A DNA stretch of 64,000 bases from Dictyostelium discoideum (GCA_000004695.1 CM000153.2:2144001-2208000), one strand, 5' to 3'; positions 20,268 to 37,240 are shown, counted from the first letter of the stretch. Numbers and translations: made by a program. The notes: generated by a model from the sequence alone, not told the origin.

Positions 20268-22028
20268 ATGAGTAGTTTTAGATCAAATCAAAGTGTTAGT
20301 CTTTTACATGATAGACAAAATAAAACATGGCTTTCAACAATTAAGAATCAATTGATACCAACATCAGGTGATGTTAATGCAGTATTTTCAGTGGTATTGG
20401 ATAATTTGGCAAATATAGCATCATTGGTTGGTATTTTACAAGGTGCCTATGGAATGCCAATTGATCTTGTAACAAAGTATTTTATAGCGGGTCCGGCATT
20501 GGCTGTTATGATTGGTAGTATAGCATTGTCGTGTTATGCCATCTATTTGGATTATCATGAAAAGGATCCATCTGTACATTATACTGCAATTCCAGTGGGT
20601 TTAGACGCACCATCAACTATTGGGTTACCTTTGTTAGTGATTGGTCCGGCTTATGCATTGGCAATAAAGAATGGTAGTTCCATACCGGATGCTACAAATA
20701 GTGCTTGGTTAGTTGGTTGCACAACCGTGTTTTTAATTGGCGCATTCAAGGTGTTACTAACGTTGATGAGTTTTGCACAGAAGCAATTCCATCCAGTGGG
20801 CAAAGCCGGCGCATTGGCAGGCATAGGTTTGGCATTGTTAGGCATGAATGAATTGTTAACCGTCGTTGAAGAGCCTGTAGTTGGTTGGGTGTCACTTTGG
20901 ATACTTTTGTTGATACTAATTCACAGACAGAATAAACATGGTGAAACGGTTGGAATTTCATTGCCATTCAATTTGTCGGGTGTTTTACTCTCTGCTTTGG
21001 TGGGTTCCGCAATCTATTATTTCATGGCAGGTGTACATATTTCCGTGGACCCAATGCCAAGTGGTGTCACTGATAACTACGAATTGACCTATCCACATCC
21101 ATCAAATATTTTCAAATCGTTCGCTGATGCAATTAAACAAAATATCTCCATTGCTATACCATATGCCATCCTTGTGAATATCGGGTCATTGACAATCACT
21201 GATAGTGCAAATAATGTCGGTAATGCATACAATACACGTTGGGTATTATTGATTGATTCATTTTCAACAATCATTGGTAGTTTCTTTGGAAGTACAGTTC
21301 AAACCACACCATACATTGGTCATACAGTTTTCCATACTAATTTTAAAGCACGTTCTGGTTATTCCTTAATTAGTGGTTTAATCATTGGTTTGGGTGGTTT
21401 CTTTGGTTATCTTGGTTTCCTCACTAAAATCTTACCAAAGCCAGCAATCATACCAATTTTCATTTTCATTGCATTTGAAATTTGTTCAGACACTTTCCAC
21501 AATACTAAAGGTATTAAACCACATCATTGCGCTGCTGTGGTTTGGAGTTTCTTCCCATCGTTATTCCAATTTTGTAATATTTACATTAGTCAAATCTCAC
21601 CAGTTTTATCAAATTGTATCACTGATCCAAATTCAGTGGCTACTACATTAGGTTTACAACCATCTTTAATTCAATCACTTGGTAATATAATGATAATGGC
21701 TCATGGTTTCATTTGTACTTCTTTGTTTTGGGGTACTTCTTTAGCTTATATTTTGGATAATCGTTTGAAGAAAGCTTCAATATTTTTAGCAATAACTGGT
21801 GTCTTAACTTTCTTTGGTGTCATTCATTCTGTCAATCCAAATGGTGAGGTTTATTTACCTTGGAATTGTGGTTCAACAATTCCTTATCAATGGACTGCTG
21901 CTTACTTTTTAATTGCTGCTATCACTTTTGCTTTCTCTTTCATTAAAGCAAAACCATTTCATTCAACTTTAACTGATGAAATTGGTGCAATTCAAGCTAA
22001 TGATAATTTTTATTCAAAATCATTTTAA
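20268..22028 (+). CDS. Polytopic membrane protein (about 12-14 predicted TM helices), putative permease/transporter of uncertain family; 586 aa from ATG 20268. The same frame is open upstream to 19728.
   Basis: Long ORF in the track with many hydrophobic stretches (LIGAFKVLLTLMSF, GIGLALLGMNELL, ISGLIIGLGGFFGYLGF, and others). Codon usage is unusually GC-rich for this genome (ccg, tcg, gcc, ggc and ttg are frequent; the body is roughly 40-45% GC). A Ser/Asp/Asn/Pro-rich in-frame extension with AT-rich codons precedes the ATG. Confidence 0.6.
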   Translation: MSSFRSNQSVSLLHDRQNKTWLSTIKNQLIPTSGDVNAVFSVVLDNLANIASLVGILQGAYGMPIDLVTKYFIAGPALAVMIGSIALSCYAIYLDYHEKDPSVHYTAIPVGLDAPSTIGLPLLVIGPAYALAIKNGSSIPDATNSAWLVGCTTVFLIGAFKVLLTLMSFAQKQFHPVGKAGALAGIGLALLGMNELLTVVEEPVVGWVSLWILLLILIHRQNKHGETVGISLPFNLSGVLLSALVGSAIYYFMAGVHISVDPMPSGVTDNYELTYPHPSNIFKSFADAIKQNISIAIPYAILVNIGSLTITDSANNVGNAYNTRWVLLIDSFSTIIGSFFGSTVQTTPYIGHTVFHTNFKARSGYSLISGLIIGLGGFFGYLGFLTKILPKPAIIPIFIFIAFEICSDTFHNTKGIKPHHCAAVVWSFFPSLFQFCNIYISQISPVLSNCITDPNSVATTLGLQPSLIQSLGNIMIMAHGFICTSLFWGTSLAYILDNRLKKASIFLAITGVLTFFGVIHSVNPNGEVYLPWNCGSTIPYQWTAAYFLIAAITFAFSFIKAKPFHSTLTDEIGAIQANDNFYSKSF

Positions 22029-23049: not shown

Positions 23050-23099
<50 letters not shown>

Positions 23100-23102
<3 letters not shown>

Positions 23103-25656
23103 TTAAGATTTAATTTTAAACATTTAATATTTTTTATTTCAACAATTTTAGTATTTTTATTATCATTTATTTTATCAAATTATATAAAAGCATTGTTATT
23201 ATCATCATTTGATATTGATGTTTATTCAAAATATATTAAATCACCGAATCAATCAATGATTAGTTATTTTAGAATTAAAGAAAATGCTGACTCATTTCAA
23301 TCAGACTCAAATGATGGTATTATAAAGAGTACAATTGATGAAGTTCAATTAAAAAATCAAATTGAGAATTATCAAGATAAAAATTTTCAATTAAAAAGTT
23401 TTTTAGTTAAAAATCAATTTTTTATAATATTTTTAATTTTACAAAGTATTTTATCAGTCATTTTAATACCAAATCTTTATTTCACCCCTTTTACTTTAAA
23501 TGTACTTGTAAATAGATTTACATTTGAATTTCTTCAACATCAATATATTATTTTAACCAAAATTAGATTATTTGAATATTATGGTATTTATTCTCAAAAT
23601 AGATTATTGGATGATCTATCATTATCATTTAGAAAGAAACAAAAAGCTTTATTAAAAAAGAATTTAAATTTCTTAAAATCATTTAAAAGTAAAGTTTTTA
23701 AAGATTTGGAAAAGAGAAAAGAAAATTCAATGCAAAATTGGATTACTTATACAACACTAGAATGGTTTTTAACTACATCCTCATTTGGTTATGATTTAAT
23801 GATTTACATTTATCCATTATTCATTTATAATCCTTTAATTTATCCAACTAATCAATTTAGAGGTTGTATTGTTGCTTATGTTAAAACATTAACAATTATA
23901 CAAAGAGTAAATATATAAATATTTTTTGAAATTTTATTTATATTTATATGTATTAAAATTTTTTTATTTTTTTTTATTTTTTTTAGTTATCAACAGAATC
24001 AGAAATTAAAGATTATATTAAAAGAATCCAACATTCTGTAGAATATATTGATGGTTGTATAATTGATTTAAAAAAGAGAGAGAAAAAAGGAGTTTTACCA
24101 TGTGTTGATTCAATTATTGGAATTTGTAAACATTTAGAAAAAACAATTTATTGTGATAAAAGTAATCCAAAAAATCATTTTATTTATAAATTAGTATCTG
24201 TACATCTCCAAGGTTTACCAGATGAAGATATTGGTGAATATAAAAGAAAAGTACTCTTAGATCATACTTTAGGTGCAATTGTTAATTTTTTTATGCCTGC
24301 AATTAGAAAACTAATAAGATATCATTACAGTTTAATTCCAATTGCTCCAAAAGAAATAGGTGTAAGTTTTTATTTTATATTCTATTTAATATTATTTATA
24401 ATATTAATTGCTAACAATAATATATTATTAAAATTAATTAAAATTGAATAAAAAAAGTTATGGAGAATACCAAATGGTGATGATATTTATAGATTTCATA
24501 TTTATTATTTTACATCAACAACAATGCATCCAATGGATTTACAAGAATTAGGTTTAAAAGAAATTGAATCTTGTAAAAAGAAAATAATTGAATTGGTACA
24601 ACCAGAGTATATTTTTTGTAAAGGTTATGAAAGTTTTGGTGATTTTATTAGAAGATTATTTAATGATCCTGAATTTCATTTCTCTTTCACAAAAAAGGGA
24701 AGAAGAGATGCAGTACATCAATTAAAAAATTCAATTACAAGAGCATGGGAAAAAAGTAAAGATTTATTTTATGAATATCCTGAAAGTCCAATTAATATAG
24801 ATTATTATACAATTTTCTCTGATGTTTCATATAATTATCAAGCTGGTCCATGGGATGGTGTAAATATTTTAATTAATTTTATTTTATTTTATTTTTAAAT
24901 ATAAAATATACTAATTAATTAATTTATATATGTAGAGTGAAAATCCAAGAATTTCAATTAATTTCGATAGAGAAATTACTTATTCAAAATTAATGAATAA
25001 AGGTTGTGCATTTAGAGAAGGTGTACCAGGTCATCATTTACAATTAGAAGCATTTAAAAATTCAAATTTAGATTTCTTTAGAAAAAATTTGGTATGTAAT
25101 AATATAATTTTAATTTAAATTAAAAACATTATTTATTATTTATTGTTTTTTTTTTTATATAAATATTTAGATTTCAAATTCATTTTTTAATGGATGGGGA
25201 TTATATGCAGAATTATTAACAATTGAAAATGGTTGGATGGATAATAAATGGGAAGTGTTGGGACATTATTTAATGGATTTAAGAATTAGTGCAAAATTAG
25301 TAGCAGATTGTTCAATTCATTACCAAGGTATTAAATGGGATACAAAAACTGCATGTTCATTTTTTGAAGAATTAGGTTTTAGCAATAGAGAAGCAGAATT
25401 AGAAGTAAAATGTATATCATCATTACCAGGAACTGGATTATCACAAAAAGTAGGTCAAGTTAAACTTTTAGAAATGAGAGAATTTGCAGAACAAGAATTG
25501 GGTGATAAATTTGATATTAAAGAGTTTCATAGTGTAATTTTAGAGAATGGTTCTCTACCTTTAGATATTTTGGCACAAGTTAATCAATATTGGATAATTG
25601 AAAAAAAACAAAATAATAATCCATTCCCTTCATTATTTAAAAATAAAACTAATATT

Positions 25657-25729
<73 letters not shown>

Positions 25730-25809
25730 TTAATAATAATAGTGGCAGTAGTGGAAGTAGTGGAAGTAATGTTAAACCCGAAAAATATGAAAGTTATAAA
25801 GATAAATAA
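23100..25809 (+). CDS. DUF885-family protein (bacterial-type, putative secreted/membrane metallopeptidase-like); 5 exons: 23100-23906, 23987-24361, 24458-24859, 24936-25091, 25171-25809; ~792 aa
   Basis: The exon 4/5 translation contains the DUF885 hallmark motifs GCAFREGVPGHHLQLEAF and FFNGWGLYAELL. The N-terminus has a hydrophobic signal/anchor (LIFFISTILVFLLSFIL). Donors are GTAAAT, GTAAGT, GTAAAT and GTATGT, acceptors are all AG, and frames are conserved. The C-terminus has a poly-N/GSS tail. Confidence 0.7.
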
Positions 25810-26032: not shown

Positions 26033-26567
26033 TTATTTTTGAATCATTGGTTTAATTGGAGTAATTGGATGTTCAATCTCTAAAATTGAAGGATCAGGAT
26101 TTTTGATAAAAATTTGTTGAAAGAATGAAATTAAATTAAATACAATAGTATTTGCATTTGCAATTTCTTGGATGTCACCTTTTTCAATATTTGGTCTTAA
26201 TAAACTAGGGCCATATACAATTGATAAATTACTTGGAGTCATTAAATTTTCTTTAGAGTTTAATGAAATATCATGTAATAAAGATATACATTCATAAAGA
26301 ATTGTATATTGGAAATTTGGAATTGAATTAACAACTGCTTTTAATGCTGCTGCTTTTTCAGTTGCATCTGTAATATTATTTTGAATTCTATAAAATTCTG
26401 TAATTCTATTTAAAAATAAAAAAATATATATATAATTAATATTAATTAAAATATATAATTATTAATAGTATTAATAAATATTTAATACATACTGTTCATC
26501 TGGAATAACTGAATGAGGTAAATATCTAAAATATGATTTGAAAATACATGCAACTATAGTTTTTTTG

Positions 26568-26624
<57 letters not shown>

Positions 26625-27619
26625 GTTAATAAAATATTAATAATTTAAAATTAAAATTAAGTATATATATATTTACCTTCATAAATCCAATTTGGATCTA
26701 AATCTTCAACTGAAGTAATTAAACCTTTATCGAATTTTGATTGAATTTCATCGATTAAAAATTTTGATCCGCTAATCCTAAAGATTCCTTCAATATTTTT
26801 TCTTCTTGAAATGAATTCAATGCAAACTTTTAAAAGATGTGGAATACCTTTTTCTTTGGCAGTTTTAAAAGATTCTTCCAATTCTACAGCAAAGAAAATG
26901 GTTGGAATTTCTGCTGAAACTGTTATCATCTCCTCTTCTTTTGGTGATGATTTCATTGCATCAAGTACTGTAATTGGTGTATTATAAATACCTTGAGTTG
27001 TGTATGAAAAGAATTCCAATACTCCTACTGCTGGTAAAATTACAACACTATAATAAATAATAATAATAAATAATAATAAAATTAATAATTGAAAAAAAAA
27101 AAAAAAAAAAAAAAGAGTTGATTTAATTATGTTTACATACCCACTAACACCTTTTGCTACACCTTTGACAAAACCACCCAATCCATTGTTTTTGGCACCT
27201 AGATATGGTTGTTCAACAATACCTTTAGCACCATTAACAACACCAACACCAATACTCCATACACCTCTTAATGCACCATCAACAAATGTTTTTGGTTTTA
27301 CTGGTGTAGTTGATGTTGATGATGATGATGGATTACTAGAACTACTATCAACTGATGAATTATCGTCAATTTCATTATTTTCTGCAACTTTTGATACTTG
27401 TTGATCTGTATTTGCTGTTGTTGTTGTTGTTGTTGTTGTTGTTGATATACTCTTTAAATTTCCAAAAAAGGTATTTGATCCTCTTTTTTTTTTTTTTTTT
27501 TTTTTTATTTTAATATTGGATATTTTTAATTAGATATTTTTAATTAGATATTTATTTTTTACATACTTTGAAAAATTATCACTTCCTTTTCTATATACAT
27601 TTTGATCTTTACTCTCCAT
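26033..27619 (-). CDS. RhoGAP domain protein; 5 exons: 27619-27567, 27482-27141, 27047-26677, 26553-26493, 26405-26033; ~399 aa
   Basis: The RhoGAP domain is reconstructed across exons 3-5. GIPHLLKVCIEFISRRKNIEGIFRISGSKFLIDEIQSKFDKG carries the arginine-finger region IFRISGS. VACIFKSYFRYLPHSVIPDE fits the AslLKlyLReLPePL helix. MTPSNLSIVYGPSLLRP fits the NLAiVFgPtLlr motif. Donors are GTATGT or GTAAAT, and intron 3 carries a 52-nt poly(A/T) tract. Confidence 0.8.
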
Positions 27620-28314
27620 TTTTTTTTTATTTATATTTTATTAATTTCTATTATATGAATGAATTTATAAATATTTTATTATTATATTTTTTTTTTTTTG
27701 TTTTTTTTTGGTTCTTTTATACTGTTTTTATTTTGTTTTTTGTTTTTTTTTTAAAGAGATTTTATAATTGTTTTCAAAAGAAAAGAAAAAAATAAAAAAA
27801 AAATGGTTTGGTTCCAAGGGTTTGTTTTAAATTAAAAAATAAAAAATAAAAAAAATTAAAAAAAAAATAAAAAAAAAAATGAAATTAAGTCGCGTTCCAC
27901 GCAAAAATTTAATACCCATGTAAAAGAATCTTTTTATTATGGATTTCTTATATCCATTTTCATTGAATTTTTTAAAATTTTAATCTTTAAAAAAAAATAA
28001 AAAAAATAAAAAAAAATAATAATAATATTAAAAAACAATAATTAATAAAACTAAAAATAACTTTTTTTAAAAAAAAAAAATAATAGAGTAATAAAAAATA
28101 AATAAAAAAAAATAAAAAAAATAAAAATAAAAAATAAAAAAAAAAAAAAAATTAAAAAAAAAAAAAATAAAAAAAAAATAAAAAAAAGTTTTAATTCTCG
28201 AAATTACATAAACTATCTTCATTATACCAAAACATTTATACATAATATACAGAATAAATCAAACCTATAGATATTATTATTATTGTTACCTTTATAATTA
28301 TTATATTTAAAAGA

Positions 28315-29545
28315 ATGTCAGAAAAAGAAACAATTGAATCATTAAAAGAAGAGATTGAAATACATGATAGAAATAAAAGTAATAAAGGATATTTACCAAA
28401 AGAATCATATAACCAAGTTACATACGATTATTCAAAAGAAGAAGAACAAGCTAAACTTGCACATTTACCAAAAAAATATTTAAAAGAATCTGAAAATGAT
28501 GATAAACATTTTATAGACCCACTAGCTAATTTAACACCAGCTCAAAGAAAAGTTTATGAATTAAGAAAGAAATTAGTAAGTTTTTTTTTTATATTTATTT
28601 TTATTATATATATATATATATCTTTCTCTTTCTCTTTCTCTTTCTCTTTCTCTTTCCTCTCTCTTCCCTCTTTCTCTTTCCCTCTCTTCCTCTTTCTCTC
28701 TTCCCTCTTTCTCTTTCACTCTTTCTCTTTCACTCTTTCTCTTTCACTCTTTCTCTTTCACTCTTTCTCTTTCACTCTTTCTCTTTCACTCTTTCTCTTT
28801 CACTCTTTCTCTTTCACTCTCTCTTTCCCTCTTCCTCTTTCTCTCTTTCCCTCTCTCTCTTTCTCTCTTGCCCTTTTTTTTATTTTAGAAATATTAATTT
28901 TTTTTTTTTTTTTTTTAAAAAAAGGAAACAACAAAAAGTGTAATATATAAAAGTGTAGTTGATGAACATAAAAGGATACATCAAGGAGCACAAGATGAAA
29001 TTGAAGAAAAGAAAAGATTATATAAAGAGAAAATTAAACAAGAAGAAGAAGAAATGAAGAAACAAGGATTAGATCCTCAAAAAGAAAGATTAAAAAATCA
29101 AATAGCCGAAGAAATTAAACCAAACAAAAAAGAGAAAAAGAAAGATTCAATAGTAAAAGATAAAAGTAATACATATTCAGATGAACATGTTTATAATTCC
29201 TATAAGAAAAGGGTGAAAGAAATGGAGAAATTTCATAATAGTGAACATTTTAAAAAGGTTGTTTCAAATGAAGATGTCAAAGAATCTGGTGATTCAATTA
29301 ATAATAATAAATATGAATATGGTAAATCAATTGAAATACCACGTGATAATATTAATGCAATGAAACAAGAGTTATTGAAAAATCAAGAAAATCGTCGTAG
29401 CTTTAAAAGAAAATCATTTAAAGAAGAAGAAGATATCAACTATATCAATGAAGAAAATAGACTTTTCAATCAAAAAGTTTCACGTGCTTATGATAAATAT
29501 ACTGTTGAAACTAGACAAAATTTAGAAAGAGGTACAGCTCTTTAA
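28315..29545 (+). CDS. syf2: Pre-mRNA splicing factor SYF2; 2 exons: 28315-28575 and 28925-29545; ~293 aa
   Basis: The C-terminus ([40 protein letters not shown]) matches the SYF2 signature [34 protein letters not shown]. The 349-nt intron (GTAAGT ... aaaaag) is filled with a CT-rich tandem repeat. Confidence 0.85.
28605..28870 (+). repeat. CT-rich tandem repeat (TCTCTT/CTTTCT units, including about 7 copies of the 14-mer CACTCTTTCTCTTT) inside the syf2 intron
   Basis: Direct reading of the sequence: ctttcactctttctctttcactctttctctttcac... Confidence 0.9.
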
Positions 29546-29650
29546 AAAAAAAAAAAAACAACAACACAATAAATTAATTAAAAATAATTAATATTGTGTA
29601 CTTCATATTACTTTTTATAATTTTATTTTATCTTTTATTTTATCTTTTAT

Positions 29651-31669
29651 TTATTTATCAGCAGTTGTGGTGGTTGTTGTTGTTGGTTCAATTGAATCAG
29701 TAGTAGTAGTAGTAGTAGTAGTAGTAGTTTGATCTGAATCAGTTGGTTTAGAATGAATATATTCACATTTATCACCTTTGAAACATTTATTATGAATGAA
29801 ATATATACAATTTGTTGTAGTTGGATTTTTCTTTTTTTTATTTTGATTTCTATTTTTTTTATTTTCACCAACATTTGCTTCATCAGAGGAGCGTTTTTTT
29901 GTTGATTTACCACCAGTTGCTCTTGAACCAGGGCCCCAATTTTCTTTTGGATTTGGGAAATATTTTGGAACATCAGGATGTTCACCTTTTGCTAATGGAT
30001 TTTTAGTGAAATCAATTTTATTTTTTGGTTCTTGAGATAGAATATGATTGGCAGGTGAATCTGGACCAAGATTTTTTGGAGGATGATCCTTTGCATAGGT
30101 TCTAAAGATATCCCAAAGGAATTGAAATGGTGCATCGGTTTTAATTGATGGTAAAACATGAGAGGAACTAACTTTGTAACCACCATTTAAGATTGCACTT
30201 TTGATCATTGCAGTTGGTGGAGTTGATAAATGAAGTGTATGAGTGAAATGATCAGATTTGAAATAAAACATTTGATCTGGTAATTCATCGATAACCGATG
30301 TTAAAACACCATACATACGACGAGAGGTATTGAAAGTTGTTGGATTCTTCTCGAGGAAGGATATAGCTTGTTTACAAAAGTCAACATTGTGGATTCTTTT
30401 AGCCCAAAATGGACCGGCGAATTGGTATTGTTTGGTGCAATGTTGGCAATGAGAGCCCACCTCTTTATTCAATAGTGGTACTTTGTATTTGATGGAATTG
30501 CCCTCCTCTTTTACCACACCAGTTGGTTGAATATGAAAACTACCACAACCAATACAACTGAAAATATTGGCCATCTTTGAGAGGGCTTTCTTGGCCTCCA
30601 ATGGTGAAGAATAGACACGAACAAACACACGTACATAGAAATCTACACTTAGGGAGAGTATTGGTACAATGTGTCTTTTGTAACGATTGGCATGTTGTTC
30701 AATTGAGTGTAGAAGAATACGCAAGCCCATCTCATGGCAAAAACCAGCACGATGAACTGGCACACTTTGATATTTATGAAAACAAGCCTCTGGATAACTA
30801 CCACATAATACAGCGGTATCAGTGGCGGTGACACATAGCAAACCACCATCTGCAACCGCTTGGACTGCACTATCCAAAAATTGGGTTGGTGCGCCGTATG
30901 GATCGACATCGACGACGTCGTATTGTTTACTATGTGTTCTATTCTCCATCATTACCATTGTGGCATCACCTAGATTTGGTTTAATACGTTCCTCTGGTAC
31001 ACCATTGTATTCTCTATTCTTTACGATTGAATCCACAGCAGTTTGTAAAATATCATTGGCTAAAATATAATCCAAATCATCTCCAATCTCTTTAGCATAA
31101 CGAATTGATCTTAATCCAGTAGCTGCCAATGCCTCTAAAACCCTAATCTTTTTAAATGGTTTACCACGTTCTAAACATTCTTTCTTTCTCTCTTCAATGA
31201 ATAATTTAATCATTAAAATTGACATATCTCTATTAAATTCTTGAACTGGATTATAAAATACTTCATTTTGATTATTATATAAAATTGTTGCTGAATTTTC
31301 AATAACTGTTACAATATTTGATTGTTCTTTAGTTTCATTATTTTCTTTTTCTTTTTGTTGTGTTTCATCTACTGATGTTTTATTAGTTGCAGTGGTTGTT
31401 TCTAATGTTGACTCTTCTTTTGGTTGTTCAACTACTTTAACTTCATTCATTTTAACATCTTCCATTTCTTTTATTATATTACTTATATTTTTTGATTTTA
31501 AAATTGAACTACTACTGAATGATAAAAAATTATTATTATTACTTTTTAAATGATTAATTGATGTTGAATTGATAAAAATACTATTACTATTATTATTTTG
31601 GAAGAATTTATTTGGATTTTGAATCAATAAACTATTTTTAACAATTTTATTTAATCGATTTGCTATCAT
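29651..31669 (-). CDS. trm1: tRNA (guanine26-N2)-dimethyltransferase TRM1/TRMT1 with C-terminal CCCH zinc finger; single exon, 672 aa
   Basis: Track ORF of 672 aa. It contains TRM1 motifs (VFYNPVQEFNRDMSI, EALAATGLRSIRYAKE, DVDPYGAP, and the Cys cluster CIGCGSF...CQHC). The C-terminal CIYFIHNKCFKGDKCEYIHS is a CCCH-type finger, as in metazoan TRMT1. Confidence 0.9.
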   Translation of the reverse strand: MIANRLNKIVKNSLLIQNPNKFFQNNNSNSIFINSTSINHLKSNNNNFLSFSSSSILKSKNISNIIKEMEDVKMNEVKVVEQPKEESTLETTTATNKTSVDETQQKEKENNETKEQSNIVTVIENSATILYNNQNEVFYNPVQEFNRDMSILMIKLFIEERKKECLERGKPFKKIRVLEALAATGLRSIRYAKEIGDDLDYILANDILQTAVDSIVKNREYNGVPEERIKPNLGDATMVMMENRTHSKQYDVVDVDPYGAPTQFLDSAVQAVADGGLLCVTATDTAVLCGSYPEACFHKYQSVPVHRAGFCHEMGLRILLHSIEQHANRYKRHIVPILSLSVDFYVRVFVRVYSSPLEAKKALSKMANIFSCIGCGSFHIQPTGVVKEEGNSIKYKVPLLNKEVGSHCQHCTKQYQFAGPFWAKRIHNVDFCKQAISFLEKNPTTFNTSRRMYGVLTSVIDELPDQMFYFKSDHFTHTLHLSTPPTAMIKSAILNGGYKVSSSHVLPSIKTDAPFQFLWDIFRTYAKDHPPKNLGPDSPANHILSQEPKNKIDFTKNPLAKGEHPDVPKYFPNPKENWGPGSRATGGKSTKKRSSDEANVGENKKNRNQNKKKKNPTTTNCIYFIHNKCFKGDKCEYIHSKPTDSDQTTTTTTTTTTDSIEPTTTTTTTADK

Positions 31670-32003
31670 AAGTTGTTTTTTTTTTTTTTTTTTTGAATAG
31701 AAATATCGAATATAGGTTTGGAAAAAAATATAAAATTAAAAAAAAAAAATACCGAATATCACTCAAAAACGATTTTTTTTTTTTTTTGTTAATTTTCAAA
31801 AAAATTTTTTTTTTTTTTTTTTTTTTTTCTTCTAAAAATAAATTGGTCAGACTGACAAAAATAAAAATAACTCTTTTTTTTTTTTTTTTTTAATAATCAT
31901 TTATTTTATTAATGCATGGGGTAGGTGTGTGAGAGATTAGTTAATTTTTTTTTTTCTTGATTTTTTTTTTTTTTTAATTTTTTTTTTTTTTTTTTTTTTT
32001 TTG

Positions 32004-33261
32004 TTAATTATTTTGTGGTGAGGTTGGAGATGATTGTTGATTTTGTTGTTGCTGTTGTTGTTGTTGTTGTTGTTGTTGTTGAACAGCAGCGGCAGCAGCA
32101 GCAGCGGCAGCTTGTTGTTGTTCAGCTTTATTAACTAAAGCAATTAAAACTTCTTTAGTTTCCAATAGATCGTGTGGAATATAAAAGTTATCTCTTCTAA
32201 CGGTTTCCCAAATGGTGACATCAAAGAAAAAGAAAGAACCAACCTCAAAGGTTGAGGTTATATTTGGTTCAGTACCTTGAACACGAGTTAACCATATCTT
32301 TCCTTCTTTGTGATATCTCCAATCTCTATCATACAATTCGATGGCTGCATGTAATTGTAATACATCCTTTGGCATTGAATAAAATATATAAAATAGTGTT
32401 TCATATGTGAATAGGTTCATCTTGAATGTTGGTGATTCTAAATTTGGTGTAGAATAACACAACGGGATATAATATTCAGGTTTTCTCGAAATTGAATAAT
32501 CTACCCATGGTGATCCAAATGAATTTGATATTTCCCTAAAATAAAATTACCATGATCATTTTTTTTTTTTTTTTTAAAATATTTGATTAATATTAATATT
32601 TGTTTGTTTTTTTTTTTTTTTTTTTTTTTTTGAATAAACCTATTATTATTACTATAATTTACCCTTGAGAATTTAAATTTAAACCTAACGCTGTTAAATC
32701 AATACCAATGGAAAGGGTACTTATATCTAAATCTGTATTTTTAATTACACTTAATAAACCTAATAAACCATATTTTCCATTATCTTTATCAACAATATTA
32801 AAATCTTTTCTTTGATATTCTTCGTGACCTTGATCATAACCTAAATGATGGTGAAGTGAATTTTCATCTGATGAAAATGTATTATTACTATTATTATTAT
32901 TACTATTATTATTATTGTTATTATTACTATTATTATTATTATTATTATTAGTGTTATTATTTTGATTATTATTATTATTATTACTATTATTTTTTGATTG
33001 AGCTAAATTGAATAAATATGTATTAGTATTGATAAAATAAATATAATTAAAGTATGATAATAGGTAAGGATAGATGATGTGATGACAGATGGATGAATGA
33101 TGATTGAAAACAATAGTAATTTTGCTATTACTGCTGTTAATTAATATATTATTGTATTAATGATTGAAATTTACCATTTTTATTTGAGGTACTGCTCAGT
33201 ACGGGGAAATCGTTGTTTAAATCAAAATTATTATTATTATTGTTATTGTTATTATTATTGA

Positions 33262-33294
<33 letters not shown>

Positions 33295-33333
33295 CTTTTC
33301 CTTGTTGTTTTTGAAGAGGTGATGTGGAAGAAA

Positions 33334-33376
<43 letters not shown>

Positions 33377-33931
33377 ATTGTTATTATTATTGTTATTACT
33401 ATTATAAGGATAATTTTGCATGCCTTGTATTATTGGTCCATTGCTATTAATATTTCCTCTTTGTTGTTGTTGTTGTGTGTTTTGTTGTGCGTTATTTACA
33501 TTACCATTCATTCTTGGTATATTTTGAAGATTTGGTGAGCTGGATGTTGTTGGCGTATTTGGTGTTGATCTTGATAATGGTTGTTGAGGTTGTTGTTGTT
33601 GTTGTGGTGGTGGTGGTGGCTGCTGTGAATTCGAAGATGATATTGGTCTTCCATTATTGTTATTATTGGTATTATTGTTATTATTCATCATATTCATATT
33701 ATTTATATTGGTTGCCATATTACCTCCAGTTGGCATCCCATTGATATTACTATTATTTCCAACCCTATTATTATTAATATTACTACTATTATTGTTGTTA
33801 TTATTTTGATTTTGTCCACCCATCATATTTTGATTTTGTCCTCTAAAATTTTGCTGTTGATTTTGTTGGTTTTGATTTTGTTGTTGGTTTAAATGTTGTG
33901 GTCCTTGCCTATTTATCATTGGATTAATCAT
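32004..33931 (-). CDS. CCR4-NOT transcription complex subunit 2 (NOT2/CNOT2); 3 exons: 33931-33175, 33002-32663, 32535-32004; ~542 aa
   Basis: The NOT2/3/5 box (LFYIFYSMPKDVLQLHAAIELYDRDWRYHKEGKIWLTR) matches human LFYLYYMNGGDVLQLLAAVELFNRDWRYHKEERVWITR. The middle exon (KYGLLGLLSVIKNTDLDISTLSIGIDLTALGLNLNSQ) matches MFGMVGLLTFIRAAETD...LGSDLTTLGLNLNS. FDLNNDFPVLSS matches LDLSDFPALA. Both introns use GTAAAT donors. The N-terminal exon is Q/N-rich. Confidence 0.85.
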
Positions 33932-34480
33932 TTCTGGTCCTTTATTTTCATTAATATTGTTATTTTTATTTTATTATTATTATTATTATTGGTTAGTACG
34001 GCTACAAAAAAGAGAAAAGAAGAGAAAGAAGAGAAAAATGAGTCTTACTGGATTGCAAATTAAAATTACTATAATTCATATTTGGATTTGCATAGTTTGC
34101 ATAATTCATCATTCCAGGATGAGGTTGCTGCTCATGATCAATATCATGATCATCTTTGTTATACTGAGACATTTTTTTTTTTTTTTTTTTAATATTCGAT
34201 ATTAATATTTACCCTTTTTTTTTTTTTTTTTTTTTTTTTCTTCTTTCTCTTTTCTTCTTTTTCGAATGGGAAACTATATTATGTGTAATTTAATATTTGC
34301 TTTTATGGTCAGTAACTTTTTTTTTTTATTTTTTTTTAAAAATTCTTTATTTATTTTGTTTTTTAAATTTGCTTACCTTTTTTTTTTTTTTAATTTATTT
34401 AAATTTCATTTGTTTTTTTTTTTTTTTTTTTTTTTCTTTGTTTGAAAAAAATAATTAAATAAAAAAGGTACCGAGCTGAT

Positions 34481-34580
34481 NNNNNNNNNNNNNNNNNNNN
34501 NNNNNNNNNNNNNNNNNNNNNNNNNNNNNNNNNNNNNNNNNNNNNNNNNNNNNNNNNNNNNNNNNNNNNNNNNNNNNNNN
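34481..34580. other. Assembly gap (100 N)
   Basis: Run of exactly 100 n characters. Confidence 0.99.
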
Positions 34581-34587
34581 CTTTTGG

Positions 34588-34622
<35 letters not shown>

Positions 34623-34849
34623 AAAAATTTTTAAATTTTTTTTATTATTTTTTTTTTATTTTTTTTTTTTTTTCAAAATTGAACTCAAATTGTTTTTTTT
34701 TTTTATAATTTTTTATAATTTTTTTTTTTTGTATTATTTTTGTTATAATTATTTTTCATTTTTTTTTTTTTTTTCAAGTACCTTTTCCCCCTTTGTTCCA
34801 TTACCAATTTTAGAATTTAATTAATTAAATATATATATATTGAACTTAA

Positions 34850-35736
<887 letters not shown>

Positions 35737-35760
35737 TATAACATATAATATAAAACAAAA

Positions 35761-35796
<36 letters not shown>

Positions 35797-35934
35797 CAAA
35801 AAAATACATAAACGATTATATATTTATTTTAAACAAAAATAAGTTTATTTTTATTTTTATCATTGTCTATTTTTATTTTTATTTTGGGTCTAAAATTTAT
35901 TTTTTGATTTTTTTTTTTTTTGGTCAAAAATTTT

Positions 35935-35970
<36 letters not shown>

Positions 35971-36041
35971 TTCATTTCTTTTTTAATTGTAACCTGATTG
36001 TGTGTGTTTATTTACTTTTTTTTAATATAATTTCAAGAATA

Positions 36042-36297
36042 ATGGATCAATACAATAGTAATAATAATTTCAATGGCGGCAGAAACAACAACAATAATTT
36101 TGATGATAATTCTCAATATAATGGATATGATAATAACATGAACAACCAATTCAACAATAATGATAATCAATATAATAATAATAACAACAATCAATATAAT
36201 CAATATGACAATAACAGTAACAACAATAACAATAACAATAATAATAATAATAATAATAGTGATAATAATTACAACAATTACAATAATTTTAATAATT

Positions 36298-36356
<59 letters not shown>

Positions 36357-36378
36357 TTTAATAACAATAATAATAATT

Positions 36379-36419
<41 letters not shown>

Positions 36420-37240
36420 CAATATAACCAACAAGATTTTATAATGAATCAATTAAATGATATGTTAGATAGAATTGATTCATCTCAAGATTATATAAAG
36501 AATACAAAAGAATGGATAATGAATAATTGCTTCAACTCTGTTGTATTTGTTAATTTTATAACGAAAAAAGTAACAGAGATTAGTCCAGATCAAAAACTAT
36601 TCATTTTATTTTTAATTAGCGATATTTTACATTTTAGGTATGTTTTGATTTTTAATCATTTTTTTATTTATTAACAATTTAACTTTTTTTTTTTTTTAGG
36701 AAATACCAATAATTTAATTGTTCAATATATTAATAAATTTTTTTTAGTCAATTTAATAGGATAGAAGGAAGACCAGAATATTTTATACAACCTTTTTATC
36801 AAAATTTACCAATGATTTTATCAAACACATATTATATAATAAATCAACCAATGAGAGATCAAGTTAATAATGTAAATATATCCTATCATTAATATATAAT
36901 ATATATTATTATTATTTGAATTATTAATTTTTAATTTTTTAAAAAAAAAAAAAAAAAAAAAAAACAGATTTTAAATTTATGGATAGAAAGAAATATTTAT
37001 ACAAAGAGTGAAGTTGAGGAATTAAAAAAATATTTAAAAAAATCACCACCACCTGGAGTTGCAATTACACCAGGTGTTACAGTTTCTCATATTCGTTTAT
37101 CACTAGATGTTACATTACCATTGAATTCACAAGATATTGACTATTATCATTTATATAATTTTGATAGATCTGAAAATAATACTCCACTTTATAATTCTAT
37201 AGATCATTTTTATAAAACAATTTACAAAGAAACACAATAA
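36042..37240 (+). CDS. CID-domain protein (RPRD1/Rtt103-like RNA polymerase II CTD-interacting domain); 3 exons: 36042-36637, 36748-36871, 36968-37240; ~330 aa; Asn-rich N-terminal half
   Basis: After a poly-N N-terminus, the sequence WIMNNCFNSVVFVNFITKKVTEISPDQKLFILFLISDILHFSQFNRIEGRPEYFIQPFYQNLPMIL...ILNLWIERNIYTKSEVEELKKYL parallels RPRD1 (KLTFLYLANDVIQNSKRKGPEFTREFESVLVDAF...LERLLNIWQERSVY). Donors are GTATGT and GTAAAT. Two in-frame alternative acceptors exist for exon 2 (36748 or 36760). The track ORF start at 35904 lies in a poly-T tract and is rejected in favour of ATG 36042. Confidence 0.6.

Follow-up and report, generated by a model that had tools for sequence, protein, structure and literature searches.

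The function of the DUF885 family is unknown in any organism, and we found no published activity for a canonical member in the literature searched. The closest described gene comes from Dictyostelium itself: DDB_G0278355, a DUF885 protein of unknown function, is listed as a candidate for bacterial-to-Dictyostelium transfer (Sucgang et al. 2011; PMC3188802, Table 2). Eighteen such candidates were first put forward when the genome was published (Eichinger et al. 2005 list), of which 16 were retained (PMC3188802), and a Dictyostelium purpureum orthologue, protein 155362, was noted for DDB_G0278355 (PMC3188802). A 2026 preprint on D. giganteum gives the same list of transfers. Elsewhere in eukaryotes, DUF885 proteins have been reported from arachnid and snail venom, and a fusion from Talaromyces. 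With respect to the active site, a point of reference is the carboxypeptidase MATCAP, in which the metal is held by a stretched HExxxH motif and the Glu of an EEG motif (PMC10499314).

Here we analyse a DUF885 gene in a stretch of 64,000 nucleotides from Dictyostelium discoideum (GCA_000004695.1 CM000153.2:2144001-2208000), referred to below as the window. A reading of the sequence only had proposed that this gene is an old horizontal transfer that was fully domesticated with introns and that may encode an uncharacterised metallohydrolase. The window gene is very probably DDB_G0278355 or its paralogue. The D. purpureum orthologue that we recovered is DICPUDRAFT_59227, as opposed to 155362 in the table of PMC3188802, and because of this mismatch identity with DDB_G0278355 is probable rather than proven. 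The idea of a bacterial transfer for a DUF885 gene of Dictyostelium is a rediscovery, already published.

A five-exon nuclear gene

At positions 23100-25809 (+), a mechanical list of open reading frames shows collinear coding pieces with short gaps between them. To establish the gene model, GT donors and AG acceptors were enumerated around the four frame breaks, and all combinations were tested for an uninterrupted frame. Only one GT-AG combination is open in frame, giving five exons and a protein of 792 residues that starts with the ATG at 23100 and ends with the TAA at 25807-25809. The features of the locus are as follows.

23052..23099, +, 48-nt poly(A) tract directly 5' of the start codon, in an AT-rich 5' region of Dictyostelium type
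23100..23906, +, exon 1 (aa 1-269): two hydrophobic segments, a poorly conserved linker and the start of DUF885 at about aa 130
23121-23177, hydrophobic segment 1 in exon 1 (aa 8-26)
23421-23477, hydrophobic segment 2 in exon 1 (aa 108-126)
23907..23986, +, intron 1 (80 nt, GC 0.05, phase 0)
23987..24361, +, exon 2 (aa 270-394)
24362..24457, +, intron 2 (96 nt), present in group-4 species and not in P. violaceum
24458..24859, +, exon 3 (aa 395-528)
24860..24935, +, intron 3 (76 nt), kept in 4/4 A-type loci examined
24936..25091, +, exon 4 (aa 529-580), with the degenerate motif REGVPGHH at nt 25014-25037
25014-25016, +, AGA codon of Arg555 in exon 4, standing for a near-invariant His of the family
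25092..25170, +, intron 4 (79 nt), kept in 4/4 A-type loci examined
25171..25809, +, exon 5 (aa 581-792 and stop): remainder of the domain to about aa 727, then a low-complexity tail
25189-25212, +, NGWGLYAE in exon 5, with Asn587 in place of a near-invariant Glu of the family
25660-25728, 23-residue poly-Asn run in the exon 5 tail (aa 744-766)

The introns are short (76-96 nt) and contain 5-8% GC, compared to 22.7% for the coding sequence, and their ends read GTAAAT, GTAAGT or GTATGT ... AG. All four are also present in D. citrinum and D. purpureum, and the P. violaceum orthologue has introns 1, 3 and 4. When aligned to an HMM of bacterial DUF885 proteins, the exon junctions fall between match states 157 and 158, 277 and 278, 411 and 412, and 464 and 465. 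The states are consecutive at all four junctions, so splicing restores a gap-free DUF885 domain. Support for the junctions comes from the reading frame, from comparison between species and from this alignment. The spliced protein has no verbatim entry in the protein collection searched. The five-exon structure proposed by the sequence-only reading is borne out by the sole open GT-AG set and by the introns kept in orthologues. VPGHHLQLEAF and NGWGLYAELL lie in exons 4 and 5, as it stated; the signal or anchor that it described corresponds to the hydrophobic segments at aa 8-26 and 108-126, and its poly-N tail to the 23-residue run at aa 744-766. The motif EGWGLYAE in its heading is the family consensus, and the window reads NGWGLYAE.

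A bacterial-type gene in a eukaryotic assembly might be a contaminant or an assembly artefact. Nothing beyond the mainly bacterial distribution of DUF885 speaks for such an origin here, and introns, composition and synteny refute it. In addition to the four spliceosomal introns, the coding sequence has a host-like GC3 of 0.084, and the window as a whole resembles Dictyostelium nuclear DNA, with 10-39% GC per kb, homopolymer runs, short AT-only introns and Asn repeats. Eukaryotic genes flank the DUF885 gene: downstream of it are those for RhoGAP, SYF2, TRM1, NOT2/3/5 and a CID protein, and farther off in the window lie genes for MA3, glycosyltransferase, class II tRNA synthetase, FHA and JAB/MPN proteins. 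The D. citrinum locus shows the identical order, DUF885 - RhoGAP - SYF2 - TRM1 ... CID, and is collinear over at least six genes, and orthologues are present in eight dictyostelid assemblies. The closest orthologues are those of D. citrinum (90% identity), D. firmibasis (85%), D. purpureum (72%) and P. violaceum (64%). A word-indexed homologue search returned 6 matches, low-complexity words having probably crowded its candidate list. With its introns, host-like composition, eukaryotic neighbours and orthologues in sister species, the gene is integrated in a eukaryotic chromosome, a genuine nuclear gene in a genome of the Dictyostelium discoideum type.

Family membership, predicted fold and membrane topology

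The spliced protein matches Pfam PF05960 (DUF885) with E = 4.8e-79 and 267.8 bits (cut-off 32.4 bits), covering profile positions 6-530 of 532, which confirms the family assignment first made by eye; an NCBIfam search gave no match. By sequence, it also matches three solved DUF885 structures (3o0y, E = 1.3e-40). Structure prediction was carried out on the D. firmibasis A-type orthologue (see below) with an alignment of 101 sequences. The resulting model (pLDDT 87.4, pTM 0.83) has a fold like that of the solved members. Outside the family, fold comparison gave figures of 15.8 for the MATCAP tubulin tyrosine carboxypeptidase and 12.8-14.4 for M32 carboxypeptidases, followed by M3 oligopeptidases (about 11), ACE (10.2), M1 aminopeptidases (about 10) and thermolysin (8.6). 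The model shows a zincin fold with the active-site helix pair and places the protein among the gluzincins (Pfam clan Peptidase_MA; M32/MATCAP-like), in line with the zincin-like fold suspected from the sequence. The DUF885 profile reached no other peptidase family among PDB sequences, so that it is the fold comparison alone that makes the link to zincins. We take the window protein to be a DUF885 protein that is anchored in the membrane and, judged by the orthologue model, has a gluzincin (M32/MATCAP-like) fold.

Immediately in front of the domain lies the second hydrophobic segment, which lines up with the one N-terminal anchor that the closest bacterial relatives have. The first segment and the 80-residue linker, a region of low confidence in the orthologue model, appear as an A-type addition that is faster evolving. 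Two membrane passes would set the domain on the same side as the N-terminus, and we speculate that its location may differ from that in single-anchor relatives.

Dictyostelids have two DUF885 paralogues

A profile search of 1.84 billion representatives matched 8969 family members. Its best-scoring matches were named, and together with a further homologue search they place the dictyostelid proteins in two types. A-type proteins are those of the window gene, D. citrinum, D. firmibasis, D. purpureum, P. violaceum, Tieghemostelium lacteum, Heterostelium album and one EukProt entry. The B-type comprises P. violaceum CYY_007592, D. firmibasis RB653_004649, proteins of D. dimigraforme, Acytostelium subglobosum and Cavenderia fasciculata, a second EukProt entry and one metagenomic sequence. 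Both types occur within P. violaceum and within D. firmibasis, showing that A and B are paralogues, and together the orthologues and paralogues span all four dictyostelid groups.

Several lines of evidence indicate that A and B are each other's closest relatives. With a profile made from A-type sequences only, B proteins score 443-373 bits, above every single-domain bacterial protein (at most 296 bits). Our insert criterion flagged a 2-aa insertion (IHYQ-gi-KW) in 11 of 14 A/B sequences from dictyostelids and in 0/358 of the remaining sequences in a set of 372; it can also be seen by eye, shifted by one or two positions, in P0009 and P0169. Neighbour-joining (NJ) on Kimura distances gave bootstrap values of 100 for A, 77 for B and 54 for A+B, the A branch being long.

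The two types have evolved differently. B genes are intronless at both loci examined, with eukaryotic genes around them, and their products are 36-39% identical to bacterial proteins, compared to approximately 26% for A-type proteins. Lineage-unique changes number 88 on A versus 50 on B (p = 0.001). Despite this faster rate, the DUF885 domain of the window gene is under strong purifying selection, with a dN/dS versus D. citrinum of 0.096 (597 codons). The same comparison gives 0.36 over the N-terminal 130 residues, and with a value of 1.08 the Asn-rich tail evolves neutrally.

A degenerate active site in the A-type

The family signature is HE..PGHH.Q ... EGW..Y.E, and the window protein departs from it, reading REGVPGHHLQ ... 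NGWGLYAE. Of 365 non-A sequences, 362 (99.2%) have the His of HE and 360 (98.6%) the Glu of EGW. By contrast, all seven A-type sequences have R or K (or a gap) for the His and N, A or D for the Glu; the residue at the lost His position is R in five A-type sequences and in the window, and K in one. The changes extend beyond these two positions: 43 columns show at least 95% conservation elsewhere, and the A-type differs in 11 of them, including three Arg, one Gly, one Tyr and the 'PGQA' motif. It does keep the Glu adjoining the lost His, the His pair of PGHH, and Tyr and Glu in Y.E. The first of these, the general-base Glu556, is present in every A-type sequence that covers the region.

By analogy, HE..PGHH ... 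EGW of DUF885 would be the natural counterpart of HExxxH plus Glu in MATCAP, and the predicted metal ligands of DUF885 are then His, His and Glu. Arg555 and Asn587 of the window protein would occupy two of these three positions, leaving it short of a complete predicted set, and with two of three predicted zinc ligands lost, the protein is probably not an ordinary metalloprotease. The uncharacterised metallohydrolase of the sequence-only reading holds up as far as the zincin-like fold is concerned; the replacement of His by Arg and of Glu by Asn, both at predicted ligand positions, goes against the hydrolase part. Two marks of a pseudoenzyme are present, namely residue loss alongside a canonical paralogue in the same lineage, and purifying selection, and we infer a probable loss of activity in the A-type. 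Annotation of the window gene by family would wrongly imply metallopeptidase activity. As a counterweight to inactivity, the catalytic Glu, the PGHH His pair and the Glu of YxE are all kept and the R/K replacement is conservative, so the site could be active.

Two forms of activity deserve to be weighed. In the first, the protein would be an active zinc metallohydrolase in which Glu556, His561, His562 and Glu594 take the place of the usual ligands and catalytic residues. The intact gluzincin fold of the orthologue model, the E, H, H, Y and E of the signature that the A-type keeps, and purifying selection on the domain, which is compatible with catalysis, would all fit such an enzyme. Nevertheless, we consider it unlikely: positions that are 99.2% and 98.6% invariant among 365 members are replaced in every A-type sequence, nine further near-invariant residues (three Arg among them) are replaced as well, and the lost residues are two of the three ligands by the MATCAP HExxxH + E analogy. 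In the second, the Arg or Lys that stands in for the lost His would take over the positive charge of the zinc in a metal-independent hydrolase with an altered mechanism or substrate. That the replacement is always basic and the adjoining general-base Glu is invariant agrees with this idea, but it is purely inferential and several presumed substrate-binding Arg are also lost, which makes it a distinctly poor candidate.

Origin of the amoebozoan genes

Outside the Dictyostelia, the best-scoring named matches among the 1.84 billion representatives include only three kinds of eukaryote: Balamuthia, the eukaryote of a Logan contig, and chytrids. A further profile built from B-type proteins, Balamuthia and P0052 gave 22 matches, with no further named eukaryotes. 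The Balamuthia mandrillaris protein, KAL6066537.1, is encoded by a seven-intron gene whose neighbours are clathrin heavy chain, NDUFB12, F-box and AIF-1 genes, and the Logan sequence lies on a 97-kb contig next to ankyrin, ESF1 and L27A genes. The statement that DUF885 is overwhelmingly bacterial is correct in that the family is mostly bacterial, but it overlooks eukaryotic members in the form of the dictyostelid A and B proteins, those of Balamuthia and chytrids, the venom proteins and Talaromyces; the family is patchy in eukaryotes, not absent.

In NJ trees (Kimura distance) with bacterial and eukaryotic members, the Balamuthia and Logan-contig sequences join the dictyostelid clade in about half of the bootstraps, the amoebozoan clade reaching 49%. 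Both sequences carry the loop-insert pattern 'YPxPL[FY]' that is also found in the window gene. The 10-aa loop insert before YPxNQ had been considered as a eukaryote-specific marker and was rejected, given that inserts occur there in 47/372 sequences, bacteria included; it is only the sequence pattern of this insert that the amoebozoan proteins have in common. Tandem DUF885 domains of chytrids form their own clade (bootstrap 100), and a joint clade of chytrids and amoebozoans was obtained in 0/100 NJ bootstraps. The nearest bacteria are Acidobacteriota, Gamma- and Betaproteobacteria, Bacteroidota (Hymenobacter), Verrucomicrobiota and others. They represent many phyla, no bacterial sister group stands out in the NJ tree, and no single donor emerges.

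The gene structures provide information on timing. Intron 1 of the Balamuthia gene and intron 1 of the window gene coincide exactly in alignment position and in phase (HMM states 157 and 158, phase 0), and two more Balamuthia introns are 1-3 codons away from A-type introns. Under uniform placement, the chance expectation of an exact match is approximately 0.02. A related Balamuthia gene together with a common intron position suggests that the acquisition probably predates the Dictyostelia and that the gene was probably resident, with introns, before Dictyostelia and Balamuthia split. This in turn suggests that the intronless B copy either lost its introns or arose by retroposition.

Long residence in eukaryotes, to which the common intron position attests, is also what one would see if DUF885 had been present in the last eukaryotic common ancestor, or had been derived from an organelle, and was then inherited vertically with many losses. 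The occurrence of the family in Dictyostelia, Balamuthia, chytrids, Talaromyces, arachnids and molluscs would be compatible with such a history. Set against this, the eukaryotic distribution is very patchy, the amoebozoan and chytrid clades never group together (0/100 bootstraps), and each is nearer to bacterial sequences than to the other. Moreover, the B-type and Balamuthia proteins are up to approximately 54% identical to bacterial proteins in their best segments. On this limited sampling of eukaryotes, vertical inheritance therefore has a slim chance in our view, and bacterial origin is the most economical explanation of these comparisons. We regard it as likely, and go no further because the trees are distance-based and moderately supported. 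As for the old horizontal transfer, domesticated with introns, that the sequence-only reading advanced, bacterial ancestry is the best reading and the introns are spliceosomal; the claim lacks novelty, having been made before (PMC3188802).

A model for the evolution of the window gene

Taken together, we favour, with reasonable though limited confidence, a history in which a bacterial gene reached an amoebozoan ancestor and was duplicated into A and B, with A becoming an inactive or mechanistically altered peptide-binding protein. In which direction and when the gene was transferred we infer from the comparisons above. The DUF885 lineage would most likely have entered the amoebozoan ancestor from bacteria, probably before the Dictyostelia split from the Balamuthia lineage, and a later duplication would have taken place in or before the dictyostelid ancestor. 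The B copy would have stayed or become intronless while keeping the canonical HE..PGHH...EGW site. The A copy, represented by the window gene, has 3-4 introns and would have gained the extra N-terminal hydrophobic segment; it has evolved faster, with replacement of two of the three predicted zinc ligands (His by Arg or Lys, Glu by Asn, Asp or Ala) and of nine further near-invariant residues. Its product would be a catalytically inactive or mechanistically altered peptide-binding protein, and not a standard zinc carboxypeptidase.

A bolder version of events is that the window gene is the original, intron-bearing copy and that the intronless, possibly retroposed B copy took over the peptidase role, leaving A to be repurposed as a zinc-free, membrane-anchored protein after a transfer in early Amoebozoa. 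The A protein may then be a peptide-binding pseudo-peptidase or a hydrolase in which Arg or Lys replaces the metal. We think it rather improbable that all of this holds. If true, a zincin active site would have lost its metal in nature while under strong selection, and the intron held in common with Balamuthia would place the transfer in early Amoebozoa, much before the published date.

Comparison with known systems

The published account of DDB_G0278355 concerns the same Pfam family and genus, makes the same claim of bacterial origin and gives the function as unknown. It differs from our analysis on two points. The published papers go no further than placing the transfer 'before the group-4 radiation', whereas here the genes extend to all four dictyostelid groups and to Balamuthia; with paralogues across the dictyostelid groups and a Balamuthia relative that has an intron in common, the transfer looks older than the literature states. 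Furthermore, the papers do not mention two paralogues or a degenerate site, both of which were found here. The paralogue with a degenerate site and the deeper amoebozoan origin are small additions, and do not amount to a new kind of system.

Among proteins of solved structure, the bacterial DUF885 members 3o0y (Colwellia), 3iuk (Arthrobacter) and 3u24 (Shewanella) are structural-genomics entries with no assigned function. They are lipoproteins or periplasmic proteins with HE..PGHH/EGW intact, whereas the window protein has R and N at the corresponding positions and differs further by its two N-terminal hydrophobic segments, introns and poly-Asn tail. MATCAP/TMCP (KIAA0895L) and M32 (Taq-type) carboxypeptidases are alike in fold, with a sequence identity to DUF885 of approximately 9-10%; these are proven zinc enzymes, while the window protein is without two of the equivalent ligands, as predicted by analogy. 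The nearest comparison is with the B-type proteins (CYY_007592 and RB653_004649), which resemble the window gene in family, clade, 2-aa insertion, loop insert and membrane anchor. They are, however, intronless and keep every signature residue, whereas the A-type gene of the window bears introns, evolves faster and has two of these residues replaced. For finding out the role of DUF885, the canonical and the predicted ligand-depleted copies of the dictyostelids constitute a tractable natural pair.

Introns in the DUF885 genes

The first intron of the DUF885 gene in the window and that of the Balamuthia mandrillaris DUF885 gene occupy the same position in the same phase. The B. mandrillaris gene carries seven introns and has clathrin, NDUFB12, F-box and AIF-1 genes as its neighbours. 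Among dictyostelids, the A-type paralogue with its altered HE..PGHH...EGW site, to which the window gene belongs, contains 3–5 introns, whereas the B-type paralogue, which keeps the canonical signature, has none at the 2 loci examined. The genes compared are as follows:

L086 3001-5034, canonical B-type DUF885 gene of D. firmibasis, without introns
L087 3001-4974, canonical B-type DUF885 gene of P. violaceum, without introns
L088 8001-10917, DUF885 gene of B. mandrillaris

The B-type genes may be retrocopies, or they may have lost every intron.

Sequence around the window gene

Three features lie next to or within the gene:

20268-22028, + strand, single-exon ORF for a multi-pass membrane protein of 586 aa, immediately upstream of the DUF885 gene
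23052-23099, poly(A) run of 48 nt, directly adjoining the DUF885 start codon
25660-25728, AAT repeat of 69 nt, coding for a poly-Asn run

For the membrane ORF (GC 0.36), neither a Pfam match at E ≤ 0.001 nor a sequence relative in the PDB was found, and we therefore regard its product as an orphan membrane protein. The tail of the DUF885 gene beyond the domain evolves neutrally (dN/dS approximately 1.1 versus D. citrinum). Downstream, 26033-36674 and the D. citrinum locus (L085) share one gene order: RhoGAP(-), SYF2(+), TRM1(-), NOT2/3/5(-) and, further along, CID(+).

DUF885 proteins in other species

The D. purpureum orthologue of the window gene is DICPUDRAFT_59227 (P0003), an identifier different from the 155362 published as the D. 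purpureum orthologue of the DUF885 horizontal transfer candidate (PMC3188802, Table 2). The mismatch reflects either a difference in how models are numbered or a table entry for the other paralogue. In Cavenderia fasciculata DFA_01335 (P0013, 1295 aa), approximately 660 unrelated residues precede a B-type DUF885 domain, and the annotation probably fuses 2 adjacent genes. The A-type protein PPL_00470 of Heterostelium album (P0008) lacks the entire HE..PGHH segment in the alignment, reflecting either a true deletion or a gap in the gene model. Chytrid fungi have 2 or 3 tandem DUF885 domains per protein (P0010, P0016, P0019, P0021, P0022 and P0029), and the Boothiomyces tandem protein bears the UniRef name LEM-domain-containing. 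Such tandem arrays also occur, independently of those in chytrids, in some bacteria, namely Amycolatopsis (P0012) and Steroidobacteraceae (P0015).
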